Shown here piece by piece: positions 11,132 to 43,113 of a stretch of 44,583 nucleotides of DNA. Source of the DNA: Escherichia phage vB_EcoD_Over9000; the sequence record NC_073079.1. One strand, written 5' to 3'. The notes under the pieces were generated by a model. That model ran no database searches and had not been told where the DNA came from. It was given only the letters and a program-made list of their open reading frames with translations. The translations under genes and the position numbers were made by a program. Within the stretch, counting starts at the first letter, position 1. Every line of letters starts with the position of its first letter.

Positions 11132-11146
11132 TTGGAGAATACTACA

Positions 11147-11509
11147 ATGGCTAAAGCACCACTCTTCACACTTGACCCAAAGCCGACCTTTAAGCTGCCG
11201 ATTGAGATCCCGCGCCCTGGTGAGAACGAACCTGGCAAGATGACGTTTACCGTCCGCCACCGCCCTATCGACGAATTTTCGCAAACCATGCAGGACACAG
11301 AACGGAAGCTGTCGGAATATGACGACAATGACCCGGACGGCTTTAACGTTATGGTCGAGGCCATCATGCACGTCGCGGAAGGCTGGAATCTGCCAGACGA
11401 ATTTAACGCGGAGAACGTCCGCCGCCTGGTGGTCAACTATCCACGCGCGTTCGGGGTGTTCCATACGTCGTACTATCTCGAACTGATGGGATTGCGTGAA
11501 AAAAACTAA
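11147..11509 (+). CDS. tail assembly chaperone (G-like)
   Basis: 120 aa from ATG 11147 (RBS GGAGAA); acidic; sits between major tail and tape measure genes; ends just after an A_AAA_AAC slippery heptamer. Confidence 0.65.
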   Translation: MAKAPLFTLDPKPTFKLPIEIPRPGENEPGKMTFTVRHRPIDEFSQTMQDTERKLSEYDDNDPDGFNVMVEAIMHVAEGWNLPDEFNAENVRRLVVNYPRAFGVFHTSYYLELMGLREKN

Positions 11510-11823
11510 TTGAGGCGGCGCGACGCTTTTATGGCCCGCCGCCACCCTCCGAAGATTTAGCCGCGAGTTTATGGGGTGCGGCCCCTGAAGATGTTTGTCC
11601 GCCTGTTGCGCTATGGCCTGACAACGCGAAGATAGTCGCAGTCTTCACAGATTGCTCCACGCAATGGCGCACCGGTTTTGGTGGCGCATACGGCATCGAC
11701 TACGGCGTGCTGGAGTGGCTATTTAAGATGCACGGTATCGAAAACGAGCAGCGCGCGTTTAAAGATATCAAGCTAATGGAGCGAATCGCGCTTGATGAGA
11801 TGGCGCAGCAGAACCCCGCATAA
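11147..11823 (+). CDS. tail assembly chaperone frameshift fusion (GT-like), via -1 slip at 11500-11506
   Basis: The -1 frame is open from 11500 to TAA 11821-11823 with no ATG start (absent from the ORF track); encodes ...GIDYGVLEWLFKMHGIENEQRAFKDIKLMERIALDEM, resembling T-like chaperone extensions; slippery A_AAA_AAC at the junction. Confidence 0.5.
11500..11506 (+). promoter_or_regulatory. -1 programmed ribosomal frameshift slippery heptamer A_AAA_AAC
   Basis: Canonical X_XXY_YYZ heptamer 3 nt before the G-like stop codon; -1 frame is open for about 105 codons downstream. Confidence 0.55.
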
Positions 11824-12145
11824 TGAAGCGGGACAAGCGGGACGCCCCGTTTTGTCCCGCCCCTGTAAAACCGCATATCTAATCACTTTCATTGCATAAA
11901 CTCAAAGCGGGACAGGCGGGACGTCCCGTTTTGTCCCACCCCTGAAATGTGCATACCTATTCGAATTTCGTGCATAAAACAAACGGGACAGAAAGCGGGA
12001 CAAATGCGGGGCGGGACAAAGCGGGACAGCACCCCATCCCCACCAGTGCTGCCGCGGTTTTCAGCCGATCGGGACAGGCGGGACAAACCCCAGTCTTTCA
12101 GACTAGACGGGGGTCAACGGCCCCCCTCGTCTGAGACTGAATAAG
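11824..12145. repeat. iteron cluster (GCGGGACA boxes) plus conserved hairpin element, copy A
   Basis: About ten GCGGGAC(A/G) boxes, two ~80-bp tandem units (11826-11905, 11906-11985) each containing GCGGGAC-N10-GTCCC(G/A)C inverted repeats, then the ~50-bp element AGTCTTTCAGACTAGACGGGGGTCAACGGCCCCCCTCGTCTGAGACTGAATAA. Confidence 0.8.
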
Positions 12146-12207
12146 GTTTGTTTTAAAATCGCTGATACAATGTCAATCGGCAACTGCATAAAAAAGGGGA
12201 CTGCATA

Positions 12208-14850
12208 ATGGCAGATCAAGCGGCAGGCATCACGCTGAAGGCGGATGTCGCACAAATCAGAACGGCGAATACTGTGCTTGATTCATTCGCACAGAAATCC
12301 GAGAACACAGAAAACAAGGTTAAGAAATTAAACGACACCCTCGGCAAATCCAAAAAGGTGACGAGTGACGCCGCGGGCGGAATGGAGAAGCTGGCGACTG
12401 AATCGCAGCGCGCTGCCGATGGCATGACGAAACAGGAGCGACTTGCCAACAGGTTAGGCATGTCGACCAAAAACCTGGGCTTTGCCTCGCGTAACGCCGC
12501 ATTCCAGTTACAGGATATTGCGGTAACGCTTGAGATGGGTATGCCGGTGCACCGCGTTATGCTTCAGCAGTTACCACAGCTTACTGGGGCGTTCGGGGGA
12601 TTTGGTAACACGCTGCGTTATGTCGCGGGCGTCCTCGGTCCGGTAGGGATCGGCATTGCAGCACTAACGGCAACTTTAGGCGTAGGGGTGGCAATTACGT
12701 CCCGCGCAGAGAACCAGGTCTCAGCGCTTAACAAGACGCTGGCGCTGTCAGGTAACATTTCCGGCCTGACGGCAAACCAGATCCTGGTGCTATCCGAGAA
12801 CGCCGAGCGCATGGGCGGGTCGTTCCGCAAGACGCGTGACACAATCCAGTCGCTGGCGGCGGCGGGTGTGAAAGCGGGTGCGGACTTCGGCACGCTGGCG
12901 AAAGTGGTGAATGACTTTGCGAAGGTGTCCAGCCAGTCGATCGAGGATGTGGTCGCGGCGGTGGCAAAGTTGTCCACTGACCCAGTAGGCGGCTTGCGAG
13001 CATTGGCTGATAAGTATCACGTCGTAAACGAAGCGCAGATCCAGCAGGTACAATCCCTGGTGGATATGGGTCGTGAGACTGAAGCGGTGGCGCTGGCTAA
13101 TAAAACAGCCGCGGCGTCGTTCACCACCATGACCAACGATATTAAGTCCAACATGGGAACGCTCGAGCGGTCGATGAACGTCGTCACATCGGCAGCGAAA
13201 TCTATGTGGGATGCAATCCTGGATGTGGGCCGCGCGCAGTCCTCAAATGAGTCCGAGATGAAGGCGCGAGAGTCCTTACAGCGTCTGACAACGGCTTACT
13301 ATGCCGAGATGAAAGCGGTCAACGCTGCCGGTGGGGTAATGACAGAGGCGCAGAAAGCACGTATTAACATGCTTTACAGCGAACTGGTCGCACAGGAAAA
13401 AGTAGTGGCATCGCTCACCCTGCGTAACCGTGCAGAGCGAGACAACGCCCGCGCCGCGGACGAATCCGCGAAGGCGAACGAGGAGGCCAACCGCACCGCC
13501 CGTGACCGCGCCGCGTTCGAGAAGGAATACGCCACCAACGCTAAGAAGCGCGCCGACGAGATCGCCCGCCTCAATTTGCTGAATAAGCGCGGCGTGATCG
13601 ACGAGAAGGAACTGGCTGAGGCGGTGAAGCAGGTCAACGAGCGCTACAAAGACCCAGCACCGAAGAAGGCCGCGGCTGTTCGCGTGGATGCCGGTATGAA
13701 AATGCTGGAAGTCGCACGGAGCGAACTGGCCCAGCTTCGAGAATCCGGCAAGCAGATCGAAGCCAACGCGTCTACGCAGACCCGCACGCAACGCGCTCAA
13801 GCGGCCTTAAACAAGCTGATCGCCGACAATGAGCAGTTAATCGCTGCGAGCAAAGAAAGAGCGCTAACGGCAGCAGAAAAGCAGCAATTAGTCGAGTTCG
13901 GGCGCGTGAAGGAAGTCCGCGAGCAGATCGTCGAAGAAGCCAAATTGCTGGATGCGAAAGAGCAGCAGGTTAAGGCGCACGCGCAGATCGATGCCTTCGT
14001 TAAGAACCAGAACGCCGAACTAAAAGCCACCGCCGCGGGGTATGCGCTTTCCACTCGCGAAGCGGCAAACCTGCGCGAAGAATTGCAGCTAATTGACCGC
14101 CTGAAGCGGGTTGGCGCTAACGATACCGATATTGACAAGGCGGTGTCTAAGCTGCGAGAAGTGCAGGAAGCACAGACCGGCGCTAACGCCTCGTTATGGG
14201 ATGGATTCAGTCGCGGGCTTAAGGATAGCGTGGATGAAATGGGTAACGGATATACGCAGATGGCGTCTCTCACGAAATTCACATTCAGCGCTATGCAGGA
14301 CACGATGAACGAGTTTTTCGAGACTGGCAAGCTGAACGCAAAGGATATGGTTAAGTCCATCCTGAGCGAATTAATCAAGCTGGCTACATCGCAGGCGTTC
14401 AAGTCCATCGTTAGCGCTTTCGGGGGCGACGGCGGCAAAAACGGATTGTTCGGCGCTATCTTCTCCGGCCTCACTAAGAATGCGGACGGCGGAGCGTACG
14501 CAGGGGGCAATCTCGCGGCCTATTCGGGGCAGGTGGTAAGCCAGCCAACCTTTTTCAGTTATGGCGTCCAGGCGTTCGCTAAGGGCGCAGGATTGATGGG
14601 CGAGGCTGGTCCCGAGGCCATCATGCCGCTGAAGCGCGGGCCGGACGGGAAACTGGGCGTTGCCGCGTCTGGCGCAGGCGGTGGTATGGTCGTGACGACT
14701 AACGTTTACACGGGGACCGGTAAAACGGATACCAGTGTCAGCGGGCCGGATCCCCGTACCGCGCAGGCGTTCGGCAAGCAAATCACCGAGGCGGTGAAGG
14801 CCGAGATCGTGAAGGCGACGAAACCGGGTGGTGTACTTTACAAACGATGA
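12208..14850 (+). CDS. tail tape measure protein
   Basis: 880 aa, long Ala/Glu/Lys/Gln-rich helical region, central hydrophobic segment (VLGPVGIGIAALTATLGVGVAI), Gly-rich C-terminus; position after G/GT. Confidence 0.9.
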   Translation: MADQAAGITLKADVAQIRTANTVLDSFAQKSENTENKVKKLNDTLGKSKKVTSDAAGGMEKLATESQRAADGMTKQERLANRLGMSTKNLGFASRNAAFQLQDIAVTLEMGMPVHRVMLQQLPQLTGAFGGFGNTLRYVAGVLGPVGIGIAALTATLGVGVAITSRAENQVSALNKTLALSGNISGLTANQILVLSENAERMGGSFRKTRDTIQSLAAAGVKAGADFGTLAKVVNDFAKVSSQSIEDVVAAVAKLSTDPVGGLRALADKYHVVNEAQIQQVQSLVDMGRETEAVALANKTAAASFTTMTNDIKSNMGTLERSMNVVTSAAKSMWDAILDVGRAQSSNESEMKARESLQRLTTAYYAEMKAVNAAGGVMTEAQKARINMLYSELVAQEKVVASLTLRNRAERDNARAADESAKANEEANRTARDRAAFEKEYATNAKKRADEIARLNLLNKRGVIDEKELAEAVKQVNERYKDPAPKKAAAVRVDAGMKMLEVARSELAQLRESGKQIEANASTQTRTQRAQAALNKLIADNEQLIAASKERALTAAEKQQLVEFGRVKEVREQIVEEAKLLDAKEQQVKAHAQIDAFVKNQNAELKATAAGYALSTREAANLREELQLIDRLKRVGANDTDIDKAVSKLREVQEAQTGANASLWDGFSRGLKDSVDEMGNGYTQMASLTKFTFSAMQDTMNEFFETGKLNAKDMVKSILSELIKLATSQAFKSIVSAFGGDGGKNGLFGAIFSGLTKNADGGAYAGGNLAAYSGQVVSQPTFFSYGVQAFAKGAGLMGEAGPEAIMPLKRGPDGKLGVAASGAGGGMVVTTNVYTGTGKTDTSVSGPDPRTAQAFGKQITEAVKAEIVKATKPGGVLYKR

Positions 14851-32992: not shown

Positions 32993-33775
32993 TTAACGGC
33001 GGCGACGTTTACGTGGCGCTTCGTCTTCGTCGTCGTCCTCATCTTCGTCATCGCGTGGCTTACGACGTTTGCGAGGTTTTTCATCTTCCTCATCGTCGTC
33101 GTCATCGCGGCGCTTGGATTTCTTGGACTTGCGCGGCTTGTCATCTTCATCATCGTCATCACGACGTTTTGACTTTTTGGACTTGCGCGGTGCTTCGTCT
33201 TCGTCGTCGTTGTCCAGGTCTTCATCGGAGCAAGAAGACCCGCCACCTCCGAAGGCTTCGCCGTCTTCACGGAATCGCAGACCCAGCAAGCCAGCACCGA
33301 GTCCCTTACCGTTGGTGTTGTTCCACGCCCAAATATCCAGTGACACGTTGCAATAACAACCGGAATAGATTTCCTGGCCTTCGATCTCGTCGCCTTCTAC
33401 GGTCAGACCTTGCTCGGTCTGCTTCTCGCCCAGTGACGTTTGGATGTTAGGCTGTTTGAACGATTTGGCGTTGATGTACAACATGCCTTCGAACTCTTCG
33501 GTTACTTCGTCGCGCTCGTCACCGTCGCGAACTGCGCATTCCTTAGAATCCTGGGCGTAGTGGCGGTCCATCCACTTATCGGCATTCTTCTCGGATTTCA
33601 GCTTGTCGGTGAGCACTGCGCGCGCTGCCGCTTCCACTTTGTCCACCTGCGGATCTTCTTTATCCAGAAGAATCACTGCACGGTATGCCGGTTTTTGTCC
33701 ATCCTGTTTAGGGGTATCGCGTTCCCAAATTTTCAGGAAACATACGCGCACATTTTTCAGGTTGACTTTAGCCAT
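32993..33775 (-). CDS. ssDNA-binding protein-like (DUF2815-type) with zwitterionic repeat C-terminal tail
   Basis: 260 aa from ATG 33775 (RBS GAGGAA); N-terminus MAKVNLKNVRVCF... resembles DUF2815 phage SSB-like proteins; C-terminus has three repeats of acidic run plus KPRKSKKSKRR-type basic run. Confidence 0.55.
   Translation of the reverse strand: MAKVNLKNVRVCFLKIWERDTPKQDGQKPAYRAVILLDKEDPQVDKVEAAARAVLTDKLKSEKNADKWMDRHYAQDSKECAVRDGDERDEVTEEFEGMLYINAKSFKQPNIQTSLGEKQTEQGLTVEGDEIEGQEIYSGCYCNVSLDIWAWNNTNGKGLGAGLLGLRFREDGEAFGGGGSSCSDEDLDNDDEDEAPRKSKKSKRRDDDDEDDKPRKSKKSKRRDDDDDEEDEKPRKRRKPRDDEDEDDDEDEAPRKRRRR
33040..33230. repeat. imperfect tandem repeats within the SSB-like gene 3' end
   Basis: About 57-bp units (...TTGGACTTGCGCGG...TCATCTTCATCATCGTCATC...) encoding the alternating acidic/basic protein repeats. 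Confidence 0.6.
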
Positions 33776-33865
33776 TTTCCAATTCCTCATTTTCACATGT
33801 ATCGGGGTTATTGGAAGCCACCCCGTTCGGCTTGGTTGCAAATTTACTCGGTTGCGCCTAAGCGG

Positions 33866-36019: not shown

Positions 36020-36535
36020 TTAATCTTCCAGTTCGAAATAGGTTTCGACGATTTCTTTTAGCTCTTTGTGGAAGTCTTCGACGTCGTCATCTTCCAGCTT
36101 GGCGATTGATTTGATCTCGAACGATTCCAGCAGGTCGTCGAATTCGTCGTTCGCATCGTCGTCATCGCCACCGGCGATAATCGCGGCATACTGTTTGATT
36201 TCGTCGCGCATCTCTGCCAGCGGGTCGGCATCTTTCTTACCTTTGCCTTTCGCCGGTGCTTTCTTAGACTTAGCCGGTTTTTCGTCTTCGGCATCGTCGT
36301 CGTCATCTTCTACGACTTCTTTTTTAGCCTTACCTTTCGCCGGGGCTTTTTTAGATTTAGCCGGTTTTTCGTCTTCGGCGTCATCGTCGTCATCTTCGAC
36401 AACTTCTTTTTTGGCCTTAGACGGCTTCTTGTCTTCCTGTTTACCAACGGCAGCGCCAACGGTTTCATAATGCTTTGCAATGGTTTCCAGTGCTACTACG
36501 CCGCGAGTGATCAGGTTTACGATTTGCTCAAACAT
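36020..36535 (-). CDS. highly acidic protein with tandem repeats (DNA-mimic / anti-restriction candidate)
   Basis: 171 aa from ATG 36535 (RBS GGAG); two 28-aa repeats KKEVVEDDDDDAEDEKPAKSKKAPAKGK; acidic C-terminus; own terminator 35982-36011; first gene of the reverse block. Confidence 0.55.
   Translation of the reverse strand: MFEQIVNLITRGVVALETIAKHYETVGAAVGKQEDKKPSKAKKEVVEDDDDDAEDEKPAKSKKAPAKGKAKKEVVEDDDDDAEDEKPAKSKKAPAKGKGKKDADPLAEMRDEIKQYAAIIAGGDDDDANDEFDDLLESFEIKSIAKLEDDDVEDFHKELKEIVETYFELED
36248..36415. repeat. 84-bp tandem repeat (2 copies) within the acidic-protein gene
   Basis: Near-identical units ...CTTTCGCCGG(T/G)GCTTT(C/T)TTAGA(C/T)TTAGCCGGTTTTTCGTCTTCGGC(A/G)TC(G/A)TCGTCGTCATCTTC... 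Confidence 0.7.
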
Positions 36536-36771
36536 GGTATATCTCCGATTGGTTAAGTTTAGGTGTCGGCAGTTAACTTCGTCGGTGGCCTTAACATATT
36601 GCCAGGTTACGCGTTCTCCCGTTCGGGTAGTGGACCTGGTTATATAATCACGGTTGGGAATCCTGACACTTCGATCCGGCCCCTGCGTTGCCCCTCTCCA
36701 GTTTGCGTCCTGCATCCTGTCGACGGGGTGAATATTAGATTGGTTGCATGTGGGGTGTCAACAACTAATTT

Positions 36772-37277: not shown

Positions 37278-39515
37278 ATGAGCTTGATTAAATTCGCTGT
37301 AACAAAACCCGCTAAAAAAGGCGAAAAAGCCAGGGCGGAAAACTTCCAGATGACGACCGATGAGTTTTTCGAATTTATCAAAGATGCGAAAGAAATCTCC
37401 TCGGTGCATATCAACAAGACGGAAGATAAAGCCGAGTACGCGCGCCGCAAGCGTAAGGCCGATGGCATCGTGGCGTATACCAGTGACGGATTGCGTCGTA
37501 AGACCAGTGCGGTGGACCGCTCGATCCTGTTCTTCGATATCGACCGTACCGACACCCGCACCTTACGCCGCTGCCGTAAGGCGTTCATCGACGCGGGACT
37601 GGAGCACGTCTTCCACACCACCACCGGCGACCGCCACCCGCTGAAGGGCGGCACGCGTTGCGCCCGTTTCCTGGTGCTCACTGACAAGCCTGTACCGGCT
37701 GAAGACCTGGGCCGCGTCCAGTATGCACTATTACACCAACTGGGTCTGTCAGATGTGGCCTTCGACGATTGCACGAAAGACACAAACCGCCTGATGTACC
37801 TGCCACACCAGCAGTCTGTTATTAAGTGCCACTACGGCAAGCGTGCCCGCGTCCGTCGTCTGCTTCGCCTGGCGGATAAGTTGGGCGTGGAGAAGGAGGA
37901 AGTACGCCGCGAGCTTACCCAGGGCGACGACGCAGTGGCAGACGGCATTCTGGACTGGTGCTTCCAGGCAGGATTCGAGGAGTTATCCTCCGGTCGCGGT
38001 TATGAAGTGCCGTGCCCGAACGAACATCTGCACAGCGGCGAAGGGTCGACGGCTATCATGGTCAAGGATGGCGAGATCCGTTTCAAGTGTATGCACACCG
38101 GCAACGAGTGTTGCTCGGAACTGAACAGACACCAGCACCTAGCACTACGTCTTATCGGAATCCCGGACCACCTGAACGTCGAACCGCACAACATGTCACG
38201 TAAGCAAATCGCCGCCATCCTGCCAGGTCTGGACGACGAGGAAGTGGAATCGTGCTATGCGCATATAGTTGATGCGGTCGGTGACGGCGACGAGTACGGC
38301 GTATGTACCGACGCGGACCTGGATAACGAACCGGTCGCACTGTTCAGTAAGCACGACCCGATAATCGAGGGGTTGATTAACTTTAAATCGACCTGGTACA
38401 TGGCTGGCGAGTCGAACATCGGTAAATCGTTCTACGTGCTTGGCCAAATGGGCGCGGTTGCCGCAGGTATTCCGTTCGGCGGTGCGAAGGTCGTCCAGTC
38501 GCATTGCTTCTATTTCGATGCGGAAGGTGGCGAAGCCTCCAACCAGCGTAAGGAAGCATTGCAGATCAAATATGAGCACGATCTCGACAAGCTGCACATT
38601 ATCGACCTGCAATCTCGCGGCTGGGATATCACCAGCAAATCCGGCTTGCGTGAAGTTATCAGCTTCATCAACCGCACCGCTAACGGCGAACCGGTTGGCC
38701 TGGTGGCGTTCGACTCACTCAACCAGACTGTTGCGCTGCGGTCCGCCGATGCAAAACCGTTCGACGAGAACAACGCCAGCGATATGGGTGAAGTGGTCAA
38801 AGCGCTGAAGGCCATTGCGGAAAATACAGGCGGCAGTGCGGGCGTCATCCACCACCCGGCTAAAGGTGCAAACGGCAGCAGATCCCCCCGCGGGTCCGGC
38901 GCGCTGCATGGTGCTGTCGATTCTGCGTTCTTCCTGGAGCAGCCTGACGACAACCAGCCAGGACAACTGAACCTGTATCACGAAAAGGCGCGTAATGGCA
39001 TCAAGCAAGCGCCGCGCGGCTTCGTCCTGCTCAAGTGCAAGGTTAAGGTTGATCTCCGCAAGTCCGAGGCGTTCGAAGCCCACCAGTCCACCAGCACTGG
39101 TCCTGACTTCGGCGATGTGGTTGCCGGTTGGGACGTAAAGCCAATCGCATCCACGCCACGCGACGAGACTCTTTACCTCGTACCGGTCGCCCTGGCGCCG
39201 TTCGCTATCGAACAGGCAAAGGCCGCTGGCAAAGCAGCAGTTAAGGAAGAGAACGCCGCAGGCCCGCGCAACGAAAAAGAGAAAGTGCTTTATGCGGCAC
39301 TGGAAAAACTGATGGAAGATAACCCGGACCATACCGGATTCAGTAAATCGGCAATTGTCCGCCAGGCGGGACTGGCGAAAGGTGGCACCTCGACGAAGGC
39401 AATCGACGATATGGTCGAGCGCGGAGTGTTAGGTTTTTATACCGATCCGCGCACCGGGGCCATCTATGGGTCGTCGAATATCGTCATCAAAACGAATATA
39501 CCCATCACGCTTTAA
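37278..39515 (+). CDS. DNA primase / replicative helicase (AAA_25 / DnaB-RepA-like ATPase with N-terminal primase-like domain)
   Basis: 745 aa; Walker A GESNIGKS and Walker B LVAFDSL in C-terminal half; Cys/His cluster CPNEHLH...CMHTGNECC in N-terminal half; followed by an ori-like repeat region. Confidence 0.75.
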   Translation: MSLIKFAVTKPAKKGEKARAENFQMTTDEFFEFIKDAKEISSVHINKTEDKAEYARRKRKADGIVAYTSDGLRRKTSAVDRSILFFDIDRTDTRTLRRCRKAFIDAGLEHVFHTTTGDRHPLKGGTRCARFLVLTDKPVPAEDLGRVQYALLHQLGLSDVAFDDCTKDTNRLMYLPHQQSVIKCHYGKRARVRRLLRLADKLGVEKEEVRRELTQGDDAVADGILDWCFQAGFEELSSGRGYEVPCPNEHLHSGEGSTAIMVKDGEIRFKCMHTGNECCSELNRHQHLALRLIGIPDHLNVEPHNMSRKQIAAILPGLDDEEVESCYAHIVDAVGDGDEYGVCTDADLDNEPVALFSKHDPIIEGLINFKSTWYMAGESNIGKSFYVLGQMGAVAAGIPFGGAKVVQSHCFYFDAEGGEASNQRKEALQIKYEHDLDKLHIIDLQSRGWDITSKSGLREVISFINRTANGEPVGLVAFDSLNQTVALRSADAKPFDENNASDMGEVVKALKAIAENTGGSAGVIHHPAKGANGSRSPRGSGALHGAVDSAFFLEQPDDNQPGQLNLYHEKARNGIKQAPRGFVLLKCKVKVDLRKSEAFEAHQSTSTGPDFGDVVAGWDVKPIASTPRDETLYLVPVALAPFAIEQAKAAGKAAVKEENAAGPRNEKEKVLYAALEKLMEDNPDHTGFSKSAIVRQAGLAKGGTSTKAIDDMVERGVLGFYTDPRTGAIYGSSNIVIKTNIPITL

Positions 39516-39534
39516 CGGCGACCGATGACGACCT

Positions 39535-39654
39535 GAAAGATTAAATTTTGCGCGCATTGGTTGCCGATATGGGAATCCCCATATCGCTAAAAGATTAAAT
39601 TTTGCGCGCATTGGTTGCCATTTTGAGTGTTTTTAGTCGGTCGCATTGGTTGCC
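39535..39654. repeat. direct repeats with intervening inverted repeat (ori-like region downstream of primase/helicase)
   Basis: 31-bp direct repeat (G/A)AAAGATTAAATTTTGCGCGCATTGGTTGCC at 39535-39565 and 39589-39619, partial third copy CGCATTGGTTGCC at 39642-39654; hairpin GATATGGG-AATC-CCCATATC between; AT-rich stretch follows. Confidence 0.7.
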
Positions 39655-39689
39655 GTGTAGTGTAAATATAATGAATAGTTATGCAGTTT

Positions 39690-39870
39690 TATTGCATAAA
39701 GTAAGCGGGACAAAAAGCGGGACAAACTTAGGGCGGGACAAAGCGGGACAGCACCCCCGTCCCGCCCCGGATGACGCGGCTTCCAGAGGAGCGGGACAGC
39801 GGGACAGCACCCCAGTCTTTCAGACTAGACGGGGGTCAGTGGCCCCCCTCGTCTGAGACTGAATAAAATC
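39690..39870. repeat. iteron cluster (GCGGGACA boxes) plus conserved hairpin element, copy B
   Basis: About 190 bp roughly 85-90 percent identical (by eye) to 11975-12145, including the same ~50-bp hairpin element with only loop changes (TCAACGG vs TCAGTGG). Confidence 0.8.
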
Positions 39871-40021: not shown

Positions 40022-40050
40022 TGCATCCAGCCGGGCACCCTGCTATATTG
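40022..40050 (+). promoter_or_regulatory. sigma70-like promoter upstream of gene 40078
   Basis: TTGCAT (40022-40027), 17-bp spacer, TATATT (40045-40050); followed by palindromic element TTGGTTGCACACCAA and RBS AGGAGGG. Confidence 0.5.
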
Positions 40051-42102: not shown

Positions 42103-42393
42103 ATGGATAAGCTAAACGAGTGGTTATTTGCCCTCGCATGTCTGGCTGGCGGCTTCGTAGGCGCACGCATTCATGGCGAGGCTACGAAAGGACCGCTAAA
42201 CTTCGTTTTATATATCGTGGTCGGCTTCTTGTGTGCCATCTTTGGTGCGCCAGCTATCGCCGAGTGGGCTGGCTTATCTGGCGAGCGCACAGTCGCCGGT
42301 TTGGGCTTCGTAACTGCAATCTTCTGGATGCCAATAGCCGCCCGGATCAGGGAGACTATTGAGTCGTTCCGACTTCCGGGGGGTGCAAAATGA
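42103..42393 (+). CDS. holin-like membrane protein
   Basis: 96 aa with about three predicted hydrophobic helices; two genes upstream of the lysozyme. Confidence 0.5.
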   Translation: MDKLNEWLFALACLAGGFVGARIHGEATKGPLNFVLYIVVGFLCAIFGAPAIAEWAGLSGERTVAGLGFVTAIFWMPIAARIRETIESFRLPGGAK

Positions 42394-42635
42394 TTATCAC
42401 CGTCCTGTTGTTTGTTATCATAGGGGCTTCGTCCCTGTTTAACGTGTATGCGCCGTCCGTTCAGGATGGCTTCTTCGGTCGGGTGTTATATCTGCTAACG
42501 GCAATGACCTGTATTGTCGGTCTGTTGCAAACGGGAGACGTATCTGACGCCACCTGGACCGCGTTAATCTGGCTGTTTGCATTGCGCACACTGCGTAATG
42601 CTGTTTTGAATGGGGTAAAACATGCGATTCAGTGA
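42390..42635 (+). CDS. holin/antiholin-like membrane protein
   Basis: 81 aa with two to three hydrophobic helices; ATGA coupling upstream; overlaps the lysozyme start. Confidence 0.5.
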   Translation: MIITVLLFVIIGASSLFNVYAPSVQDGFFGRVLYLLTAMTCIVGLLQTGDVSDATWTALIWLFALRTLRNAVLNGVKHAIQ

Positions 42636-43113
42636 CAACGGTCTGAGATTTACGGCAGCATGGGAGCAATTCAGCCCAGTGCCGTATTTCGCGACTAAGA
42701 AAGAGCAGGCCCGCGGCCTGTATACCTGGGGCTATGGTCACACCGGCACTAATCCGCCGCGGAGCATTACCCGTGCGGAAGCACTGGAGCTACTCAAGCG
42801 CGACGTGGCGTATGCCGAAAACTGGGTGAACAAGTACGCACACCCGAGCATCAATCAGGCGCAATTCGACGCGCTGGTGGACCTGGTTATCAATGCCGGT
42901 CCTGGTCCGATCATGCCGGACGACGTCGCTGGTGACTTCGACGATGCGATCCGCCTGGGTGACTGGGCAAAAGTCCGTGCTACATTGCCACAATTCCGCA
43001 AGCAAGGCGGGGTGGTGCTCAAGGGGCTTGTCCGTCGTGCAATCGGCAGGCAGGCACTATTCGATGGTAAGCAGTGGGACGTTGCCGAGAAAATCGGGCG
43101 AAACGCCGCATAA
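42622..43113 (+). CDS. endolysin (T4-type lysozyme, glycoside hydrolase family 24)
   Basis: 163 aa; catalytic-region pattern ...FSDNGLRFTAAWEQFSPVPY...GLYTWGYGHT (Glu ... Thr-x-GYGHT) typical of phage lysozymes. Confidence 0.8.
   Translation: MRFSDNGLRFTAAWEQFSPVPYFATKKEQARGLYTWGYGHTGTNPPRSITRAEALELLKRDVAYAENWVNKYAHPSINQAQFDALVDLVINAGPGPIMPDDVAGDFDDAIRLGDWAKVRATLPQFRKQGGVVLKGLVRRAIGRQALFDGKQWDVAEKIGRNAA

Follow-up and report, generated by a model that had tools for sequence, protein, structure and literature searches.

A proposed origin-type box array and its second copy within the tail operon of Dhillonvirus phages

In the genome of the Escherichia phage vB_EcoD_Over9000 (NC_073079.1; the whole analysed stretch of 44,583 nucleotides is called the window below), a non-coding gap interrupts the tail operon between the tail assembly chaperone genes, G and its -1 frame extension T, and the tape-measure gene. 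We find that this gap, site A, carries an array of short CGGGACA-type boxes and a GC-rich hairpin, and that a paralogous copy, site B, lies behind the replicative helicase-primase gene 27.7 kb away. On balance, and with a modest lean only, we read site A as a second genomic copy of an origin-type, initiator-binding DNA module whose primary copy would be site B. Site B is read as the origin, and site A as its duplicated module, because the anatomy matches that of the iteron origins of self-loading helicases. From these comparisons we infer which protein may bind, that replication may start here and what the second copy may contribute. The paralogous copy was absent from the original prediction, which had been made from the letters of the window alone, and its position beside the helicase-primase gene gives site A its most likely meaning.

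The two copies align without gaps (11950-12144 against 39672-39866) at 79% identity and have in common both the box spacing (12/16/10 bp, followed by a pair 8-9 bp apart) and the hairpin. No further copies were found, each phage genome carrying two at fixed positions. The heptamer GCGGGAC occurs 23 times in the window compared with 9.4 ± 3.1 times in shuffled sequences, and 9 of the copies fall within 11828-12084 and 7 within 39705-39805, for a chance expectation of about 0.055 per 262 bp. The site B array begins about 190 nt 3' of the helicase-primase stop; site A, in contrast, lies between tail genes. The bare existence of a paired element was already on record because the GenBank entry of Sodalis phage SO-1 (NC_013600) annotates, as repeat_region features, a region A of 384 bp between gp16 and gp17 (the tape-measure protein) and a region B after the helicase-primase gp48, with the text 'direct, inverted and palindromic repeat sequences; sequence similarity with region B; possible ...', so that a function was already suggested there. 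A literature search on Dhillonvirus, SO-1 and HK578 repeats, on the box sequence and on replication of Rhizobium phage 16-3 found no paper analysing the element. New here are the link to arrays adjacent to AAA_25 helicases, the box variants, and the coding and RNA tests. The features of the two sites are as follows.

11824-12207, 384 bp, non-coding: site A, the equivalent of 'region A' of phage SO-1, between the T stop and the tape-measure ATG
11826-11904, + strand: tandem sub-unit 1, with boxes GCGGGACA (11828) and GCGGGAC (11837) and an inverted GTCCCGC (11854-11860)
11905-11983, + strand: tandem sub-unit 2, with boxes at 11907 and 11916, the palindrome CGGGACGTCCCG (11917-11928) and a degenerate inverted GTCCCAC (11933-11939)
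11950-12144, + strand: 195-nt core unit of site A, a third and longer unit, paralogue of 39672-39866
11984-12028, + strand: CGGGACA quartet with starts at 11984, 11996, 12012 and 12022 (spacing 12/16/10 bp)
12070-12085, + strand: box pair CGGGACAGGCGGGACA with starts at 12070 and 12079; the spacing is 8 or 9 bp at both sites across genomes
12091-12139, 49 nt: conserved GC-rich imperfect hairpin or cruciform, CAGTCTTTCAGACTAGACGGGGG-loop-CCCCCCTCGTCTGAGACTG
12163-12171, + strand: TGATACAAT, an extended -10-like hexamer 37 nt 5' of the tape-measure start
37278-39515, + strand: replicative helicase-primase, 745 aa (Pfam AAA_25, E 2.3e-19, core residues 357-531; PHROG 3228 'replicative helicase-primase')
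39672-39866, + strand: core unit of site B ('region B' of SO-1), with a leader of 79% A+T, boxes, box pair and hairpin

The original prediction had described site A as an iteron-rich, non-coding insertion of about 320 bp holding about ten GCGGGAC boxes, two hairpin-forming units of about 80 bp and a GC-rich stem-loop of about 50 bp just upstream of the ribosome-binding site (RBS) of the tape-measure gene. The non-coding insertion is real and measures 384 bp rather than 320, its repeat-bearing part ending at about 12144. The box count holds, with 12 exact CGGGAC cores (10 on the + strand and 2 on the - strand, 9 of them within GCGGGAC) and one degenerate GTCCCAC. The tandem pair was also recovered, with repeat cores (11826-11868 and 11905-11947) that are 91% identical at a spacing of 79 bp. 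GCGGGAC/GTCCCGC pairing is possible in the first sub-unit, the arm of the second is degenerate, and the longer third unit has to be added. The stem-loop corresponds to the 49-nt hairpin, which folds as DNA at -13.4 kcal/mol (z = -4.1 against shuffles) but ends 69 nt before the tape-measure ATG, with TGATACAAT in between.

Both sites share a design consisting of an A+T-rich leader (TGCATA...TGCATAAA), phased CGGGACA boxes of 7-8 bp that are mostly direct with few inverted, and the invariant GC hairpin, to which site A adds the two shorter 79-bp sub-units of the same design. The sub-units contain A+T segments at 11864-11904 (68% A+T, with GCATA...TGCATAAA) and 11943-11983 (68% A+T, with TGCATA...TGCATAAA); the segments adjoining boxes reach 68%, 68% and 79% A+T compared with 45% for the genome, and those of site A have inverted boxes to their left and direct boxes to their right. 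At site B, seven CGGGAC boxes are found, comprising direct boxes at 39706, 39718, 39734 and 39744 (spacing 12/16/10), an inverted box at 39759-39764 and the pair at 39792 and 39800, followed by the hairpin at 39813-39861.

In order to measure constraint on these parts, 33 distinct units (16 from site A and 17 from site B, representing about 18 Dhillonvirus genomes) were gathered from the window, three complete genomes and 31 IMG/VR loci by an exact 23-mer of the 5' hairpin arm. Invariant columns make up 30 of 42 in the boxes and 38 of 42 in the hairpin arms, the 5' one of which served for collection, compared with 15 of 65 between the boxes and 0 of 7 in the hairpin loop; flanking columns are far less conserved than boxes and arms. 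The segment homologous to a small open reading frame (ORF) is 186 nt long in 28 of the 33 units by way of compensating +/-1 indels, and this constant length therefore suggests a constraint on spacing or phasing, not on reading frame. The element is also retained across the group, with at least 80% of site A covered in 150 of 157 Dhillonvirus records. Such sequence-specific constraint agrees with the earlier view that site A is not a spacer, and its concentration on short boxes and hairpin arms lends indirect support to the protein-binding array proposed there.

The sequence comparison also shows concerted evolution of sites A and B. Derived states of the Ioannina clade recur at each of them: the first two boxes are 11 bp apart, CAAGCGGGAC is present, and box 4 is followed by a GGGACGTCCCG palindrome. 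Both variants of the distal box pair occur at site A and at site B, which therefore points to exchange between the sites.

Related genera suggest which of the two positions is the more general one. The Cornellvirus VSiA encodes a helicase-primase 44% identical to that of the window and carries a single array directly 3' of this gene, with the same GTGAATAGTTATGCA leader as Dhillonvirus but with GGGGGAGA boxes. In VSiA the chaperone and tape-measure genes overlap and site A is therefore missing, so that the word 'insertion' used earlier for the Dhillonvirus gap was fair. In Kagunavirus and Jerseyvirus, a cro-like gene stands at the position of the helicase-adjacent array and no array was found. 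In the Eiauvirus eiAU-183, long homologous repeat-bearing gaps occupy both positions with boxes other than those of Dhillonvirus; the two gaps share GCAACCAAC repeats, CGCCCCG boxes and a homologous stretch of about 50 nt, and a Dhillonvirus-like hairpin is present at its site A. Across these relatives the copy beside the helicase gene is thus the more widespread one, the two-site layout is common to at least two genera, and the box sequence changes at both sites together. As a separate observation, the site A equivalent of eiAU-183 spans about 1.1 kb (42123-43017 plus 1-221 of L199) and also holds an annotated 117-aa ORF on the opposite strand without a Pfam match.

To identify similar arrays outside this group, IMG/VR was scanned for three spaced CGGGAC(A) boxes, which returned about 60 unrelated contigs with a G+C content of 44-70%. 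Their arrays contain 5-17 or more boxes and are arranged as direct boxes, a G/C palindrome and then inverted boxes, often around an A+T-rich stretch. A subset was defined by at least 6 CGGGAC boxes in 450 bp and comprised 51 viral contigs other than Dhillonvirus. In 32 of these 51, the array lies no more than 181 nt from the 3' end of a helicase homologue, and in none at the 5' end; several of the remaining arrays are cut by contig ends. The 32 helicases group into 17 clusters when 70% identity is required and into 13 at 50%, and all 10 array-associated proteins submitted to Pfam showed AAA_25 together with Prim-Pol or DnaB_N. Across 287 boxes, the base after CGGGAC is A in 93%, and the spacing between neighbours peaks at 9 and 12 bp.

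The box sequence appears to vary with the C-terminus of the adjoining helicase. In Rhizobium phage 16-3, which codes for a related protein 68% identical to one of the array-associated ones, an array built of GCGTGACA occupies the same place. When its protein p101 (GCGTGACA boxes) is compared with that of L152 (GCGGGACA boxes), identity falls from 74% in the first 600 aa to 35% in the last 70 aa, whereas L165 and L152, both with GCGGGACA boxes, are 62% identical over the first 600 aa and 78% over the last 70 aa. Among these three proteins, the C-terminal 70 aa follow box type and not overall relatedness. The same trend, in weaker form, is seen for the helicase-primase of the window, which is 56% identical to that of VSiA in the body and 29% in the C-terminal segment, the corresponding values for L036 being 71% and 58%.

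On the basis of this pattern, the C-terminal segment of about 85 aa of the helicase-primase is the most likely candidate for a protein that binds the boxes in trans. An AlphaFold2 (AF2) model of moderate confidence, built from nine sequences, places a helix, a strand, two helices and a strand pair in the C-terminus, a topology consistent with a winged-helix fold, and the top Foldseek matches were winged-helix proteins (RIO2 N-domain, Fur, MarR, ORC and histone H1), none of them significant. A single-sequence AF2 model had a predicted local distance difference test score (pLDDT) of 42 and was set aside as unusable. A word-indexed protein search with the C-terminus returned one fragment only; the family is considered narrow because a full HMMER search gave only 10 relatives among 1.84 billion representatives.

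Three observations on the helicase-primase gene and its surroundings are reported separately. A 2980-aa protein matches the last 66 aa of the C-terminus eight times, which suggests that elsewhere this small domain can be repeated in tandem. In the window (39507-39545), the ORF stops at 39515, nine codons before the stop of its relatives, at a point where the window reads ACGCTTTAACGGCG and 15 related loci read ACGCTTTCGGCG; the relatives end in ...IPITLSATDDDLKD, and the acidic tail DDL(K/E)D kept by all full-length homologues is lost. The early stop reflects either genuine variation or a sequencing error of 2 nt. Finally, a second motif, (A)TTGGTTGC(A), occurs in 17 copies, many of them intergenic or promoter-proximal, which cluster around site B and are lacking at site A; the positions include 39557, 39611, 39646, 39933(-), 40017, 40048, 36740, 27069/27086(-), 22349(-) and 6234(-). 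At 40048 and 6234(-), it makes TTGGTTGCACACCAACAG directly after a -10-like hexamer, and the motif is probably an operator or promoter element of a phage regulator. The GCAACCAAC repeat that dominates both gaps of eiAU-183 is its reverse complement.

In the mechanism that we propose, a phage-encoded initiator, most likely the C-terminal domain of the helicase-primase, would bind the boxes on duplex DNA and oligomerise along the phased array. The oligomer would then open the adjacent A+T-rich segment, extrude the hairpin, or both, allowing the hexameric helicase to be loaded and DNA synthesis to be primed. Of the two copies, site B would be ancestral and the origin proper, while site A would serve either as a second origin or as a cis-acting partner that pairs with site B through bound protein, in the manner of P4 crr. 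Because site A sits inside the tail operon, it is followed by an extended -10-like element of its own for the tape-measure gene. The CTGATACAAT string is found in all 16 aligned site A units, and TGATACAAT is a possible, putative promoter of the tape-measure and distal tail genes; the two-hexamer promoter scan does not call TGATACAAT, which is without a -35 element.

Several known replicons offer precedents for such a module. In the staphylococcal pathogenicity islands (SaPI), the origin consists of 6-12 short iterons immediately 3' of rep, with repeats in both orientations around an AT-rich region, the self-loading helicase reads the iterons by a C-terminal winged helix, and PriRep5 fuses primase and helicase (PMC9371898). 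Site B has the same layout as this pri-rep-ori arrangement, with an array 3' of the helicase gene and an AT-rich region. Unlike in SaPI, the helicase here carries Pfam AAA_25, the boxes are CGGGACA-type and 7-8 bp long, the unit includes an invariant 49-nt GC hairpin, and a second copy lies 27.7 kb off inside the tail operon; binding and origin activity here are predicted from sequence. The best precedent for two sites is satellite phage P4, in which, according to work by Ziegelin and Lanka in 1995 and by Flensburg and Calendar in 1987, the same octamer iterons reportedly form two separate clusters, ori and crr, that are both needed in cis. Sites A and B likewise share boxes, spacing and hairpin. 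However, P4 alpha combines Toprim with a superfamily 3 (SF3) helicase rather than AAA_25, and only a few kb separate its two sites in a replicon of 11.6 kb, whereas those described here are 27.7 kb apart in a 44.6-kb virulent siphovirus, with one interrupting the morphogenesis operon. The P4 alpha primase-helicase binds its origin repeats via a winged helix and then unwinds and primes (PMC4234260). For ORF904 of plasmid pRN1, a stem-loop just 3' of the primase-helicase gene is needed for replication, and its authors propose assembly of the replication protein there (PMC4234260). In contrast to the present case, pRN1 is an archaeal plasmid with an SF3 helicase and no iteron array, and its stem-loop is kept in structure and not in sequence, the opposite of the pattern seen for the Dhillonvirus hairpin. 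The IncQ plasmid RSF1010 provides the founding AAA_25-type helicase, RepA, and an oriV in which iterons are combined with GC-rich and AT-rich stretches and with single-strand initiation sites at which hairpins form and primase acts. It differs from the present case in that its 20-bp iterons are bound by a separate RepC, in that primase, helicase and initiator are three proteins, and in that no second site is known. The weak sequence match to 1g8y (E 0.46) is not significant alone.

A number of results weigh against an origin-type, initiator-binding function. A place within a late structural operon is unusual for an origin, and cumulative GC skew, by which origin mapping was attempted, merely follows gene orientation. 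The 121 C-terminal aa of the helicase-primase and fragments of them gave no Pfam match, hhalign of the Dhillonvirus C-terminus against the 'KKAFxRA' C-termini of the array-linked metagenomic helicases gave probabilities of at most 1%, and no 'KKAFxRA'-type C-terminal domain was found elsewhere in the window. The AF2 models were poor to moderate (pLDDT 42 for the single-sequence model; 59, with 68-78 over residues 61-120, for the nine-sequence one), and the best of the Foldseek matches had an E of 0.31, none being significant. We infer the binder, rather than name it from homology, because the C-terminus has no Pfam domain, no detectable homology to the metagenomic helicase C-termini and no significant Foldseek match. 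In addition, the same CGGGACA box is present despite helicase C-termini without detectable likeness, which is unlike a strictly co-evolving pair. Only 4 of 42 CGGGAC arrays in bacterial genomes adjoin such a helicase, the other hits being a mixture that includes heptamer microsatellites in Bacteroidales and coding repeats in actinomycetes. A CGGGAC box array alone is therefore not diagnostic, and because the bacterial hits are heterogeneous, the claimed association is limited to viral contigs. Finally, the invariance of the 5' hairpin arm is partly a sampling effect because units were collected by an exact 23-mer; loci found by protein homology included only one readable unit (L014) that departs from this 23-mer, by one base, and two more loci end before the hairpin.

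Transcriptional control is the main rival, one that we regard as rather unlikely to be the principal function and that is compatible with the origin reading. The boxes would then be operators of a phage regulator, for example the 109-aa helix-turn-helix (HTH) protein encoded just 5' of the helicase-primase or a late activator, while the hairpin, as terminator or roadblock, together with TGATACAAT would split the tail operon and set expression of the tape-measure and distal tail genes; site B would do likewise where the helicase-primase operon ends. Both copies do stand on the coding strand between + strand genes, the conserved TGATACAAT follows site A in 16 of 16 units, and site B is surrounded by regulatory DNA in which ATTGGTTGC motifs and promoter-like sites abound. 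Iteron arrays also often double as autoregulatory operators. A short motif right after the T stop, GCGGGACG(C/T)CCCGTTTT, is the only one to resemble a weak terminator, and in the HK578 and WF5505 records it is marked as a small rho-independent one (GCGGGACGTCCCGTTTT). However, no + strand terminator was called at site A or B, and the large hairpin is followed by GAATAAGG at site A and GAATAAAA at site B; lacking a T-run, it was ruled out as an intrinsic terminator. The 7-13 boxes exceed the need of known operators, and the recurrence of the array at AAA_25 helicase 3' ends in at least 13 lineages, with co-variation of C-terminus and box, points to a replication protein. The HTH protein was rejected as a conserved binder, as it has no counterpart in VSiA, which keeps the helicase-primase and the array.

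It is quite improbable that site A is a selfish or neutral repeat, that is, a MITE-like (miniature inverted-repeat transposable element) or recombination duplicate of site B without a function of its own, or a mere recombination hotspot. Such a source would fit its status as a duplicate of another locus, the distal-pair variants shared between the sites, and a tandem duplication of the region in one UNVERIFIED record, MT446389.1 (phage TH11, L321), in which positions 1-1286 hold a duplication of about 515 bp covering the 3' end of T and the whole of site A; this duplication is either an assembly artefact or a product of recombination between repeats. On the other hand, wherever a Dhillonvirus record includes the region the element's place is unchanged, Eiauvirus has it at the same two places, and its boxes and hairpin are far more constrained than the spacers. 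No natural deletion was seen among the Dhillonvirus records containing the region, and the partial matches inspected were at record ends or in incomplete records. With two fixed copies per phage genome and no match to the element in 5,426 complete E. coli genomes, a host-derived or mobile repeat (MITE-like or of the repetitive extragenic palindromic, REP, type) was rejected. A partition, pac or cos site was likewise rejected, there being no supporting feature and the arrays tracking helicase genes, not terminase genes.

The structured RNA leader offered as an alternative in the original prediction fared poorly, and a functional RNA, whether a leader or a small RNA (sRNA) acting as a GGA protein sponge or G-quadruplex to control tape-measure translation or host factors, is very improbable. 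All exact boxes of site A except two do run in the sense of the operon (the degenerate box is inverted), the hairpin is thermodynamically significant, and G-triplets recur every 8-16 nt. Yet Rfam gave 0 matches in the window, the fold of the 176-nt array region is no more stable than that of shuffled sequence (z = -0.61), and none of the 16 hairpin pairs shows a compensatory change (covariation term -0.05). The hairpin lacks such changes because its stems never vary, so that this measure speaks neither for nor against an RNA. The HK578 and Ioannina clades have not kept a candidate stem, CAGCAC/GTGCTG, and no promoter/terminator pair delimits an sRNA. The abutting box and inverted-box arrangements and the loop-less 12-bp palindromes (CGGGACGTCCCG) would suit binding of duplex DNA rather than RNA folding. 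Along with these, the 16-3 box GCGTGACA, which keeps the architecture without GGG or GGA, ruled out a G-quadruplex or a CsrA-type GGA sponge.

A small protein gene is a negligible prospect: the 61-65-aa ORFs (11947/11949-12134/12144 and 39671-39856) include a 61-codon frame in the same register at both sites of the window, and 54-65-aa hypothetical proteins are annotated here in several GenBank records, PaulFeyerabend among others, but at least 11 of the 33 units are broken by in-frame stops or frameshifts while others switch frame internally and return, and the ORFs have no PHROG match, no RBS and a low-complexity composition. That two of the three + frames are open simply reflects a scarcity of triplets that form stops. 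The degraded gene that would have spoken against a regulatory element was for the same reason not recovered, since the ORFs annotated in relatives are not conserved as reading frames, and a small coding gene was rejected.

A wider, tentative proposal, which we hold with clearly less confidence than the origin-type reading of site A, is that CGGGACA-type arrays with a G/C palindrome may form a widespread, undescribed class of origin for phage AAA_25 helicase or helicase-primase initiators, with specificity set by their last 70-85 aa or so. The second, co-evolving copy in Dhillonvirus and Eiauvirus would then be a second origin or a crr-like partner that may also punctuate late tail transcription, coupling replication to the dosage of distal tail genes.

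Few E. coli siphoviruses are as common in phage collections as the Dhillonviruses (157 records), and no description of their replication origin was found in the literature that could be searched. If the origin-type reading is right, it names the origin (site B), predicts the initiator and gives the conserved 384-bp break in a tail operon that otherwise resembles that of lambda a meaning, as a second site bound by the initiator. It would also reach at least 13 other helicase lineages in viral metagenomes, and an array with a G/C palindrome at the 3' end of an AAA_25 helicase gene would become an origin-finding signature for uncultured phages. For annotation, the 54-65-aa ORFs in sites A and B should no longer be called. 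For engineering, a payload placed between GT and the tape-measure gene would hit a cis-acting element, and cloned copies of the sites might serve as decoys that interfere with infection.

The window itself is a Dhillonvirus genome, complete or nearly so, from the group of virulent E. coli siphoviruses that resemble HK578 and SO-1, and its gene order agrees with that of annotated relatives. The query region matches 157 phage records, nearly all of them Escherichia or Shigella Dhillonvirus, and is 99.5% identical to phage SM_S24. The genes bordering site A are listed below; the HK578 record annotates the same two ORFs for G and T.

11132-11509, + strand: tail assembly chaperone G (Pfam Phage_TAC_4, E 1.7e-23)
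11509-11823, + strand: T, the -1 frame extension of G, ending in TAA at 11821-11823 (DUF1799, E 6e-21, over 11509-11820, without stop codons)
12208-14850, + strand: tape-measure gene with its ATG at 12208 (Pfam TMP_2, E 1e-43, and Tape_meas_lam_C), the 3' border of site A

Further observations concern records and repeats outside the two sites. Records named 'Campylobacter phage A144', one 'Acinetobacter' and one 'Salmonella' phage record, MG065648.1 among them, are Dhillonvirus by sequence (91% identity over site A), and their host labels may be wrong or reflect contamination. In the Bacteroidales and related metagenome-assembled genome (MAG) contigs L250, L228, L300 and L225, runs of the heptamer GTCCCG(C/T) reach 28 copies with ACTTT or ATTTT interruptions; these runs are not beside helicase genes and represent a separate phenomenon with the same 6-mer. 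Finally, the window contains acidic coding repeats on the minus strand, rich in GAC, GAT and GAA, at 33009-33227 and 36123-36428, which fall in the gene of a Gp2.5-like single-stranded DNA-binding protein (SSB; 32993-33841) and in a 231-aa gene (36020-36715) and include an 87-bp tandem repeat.

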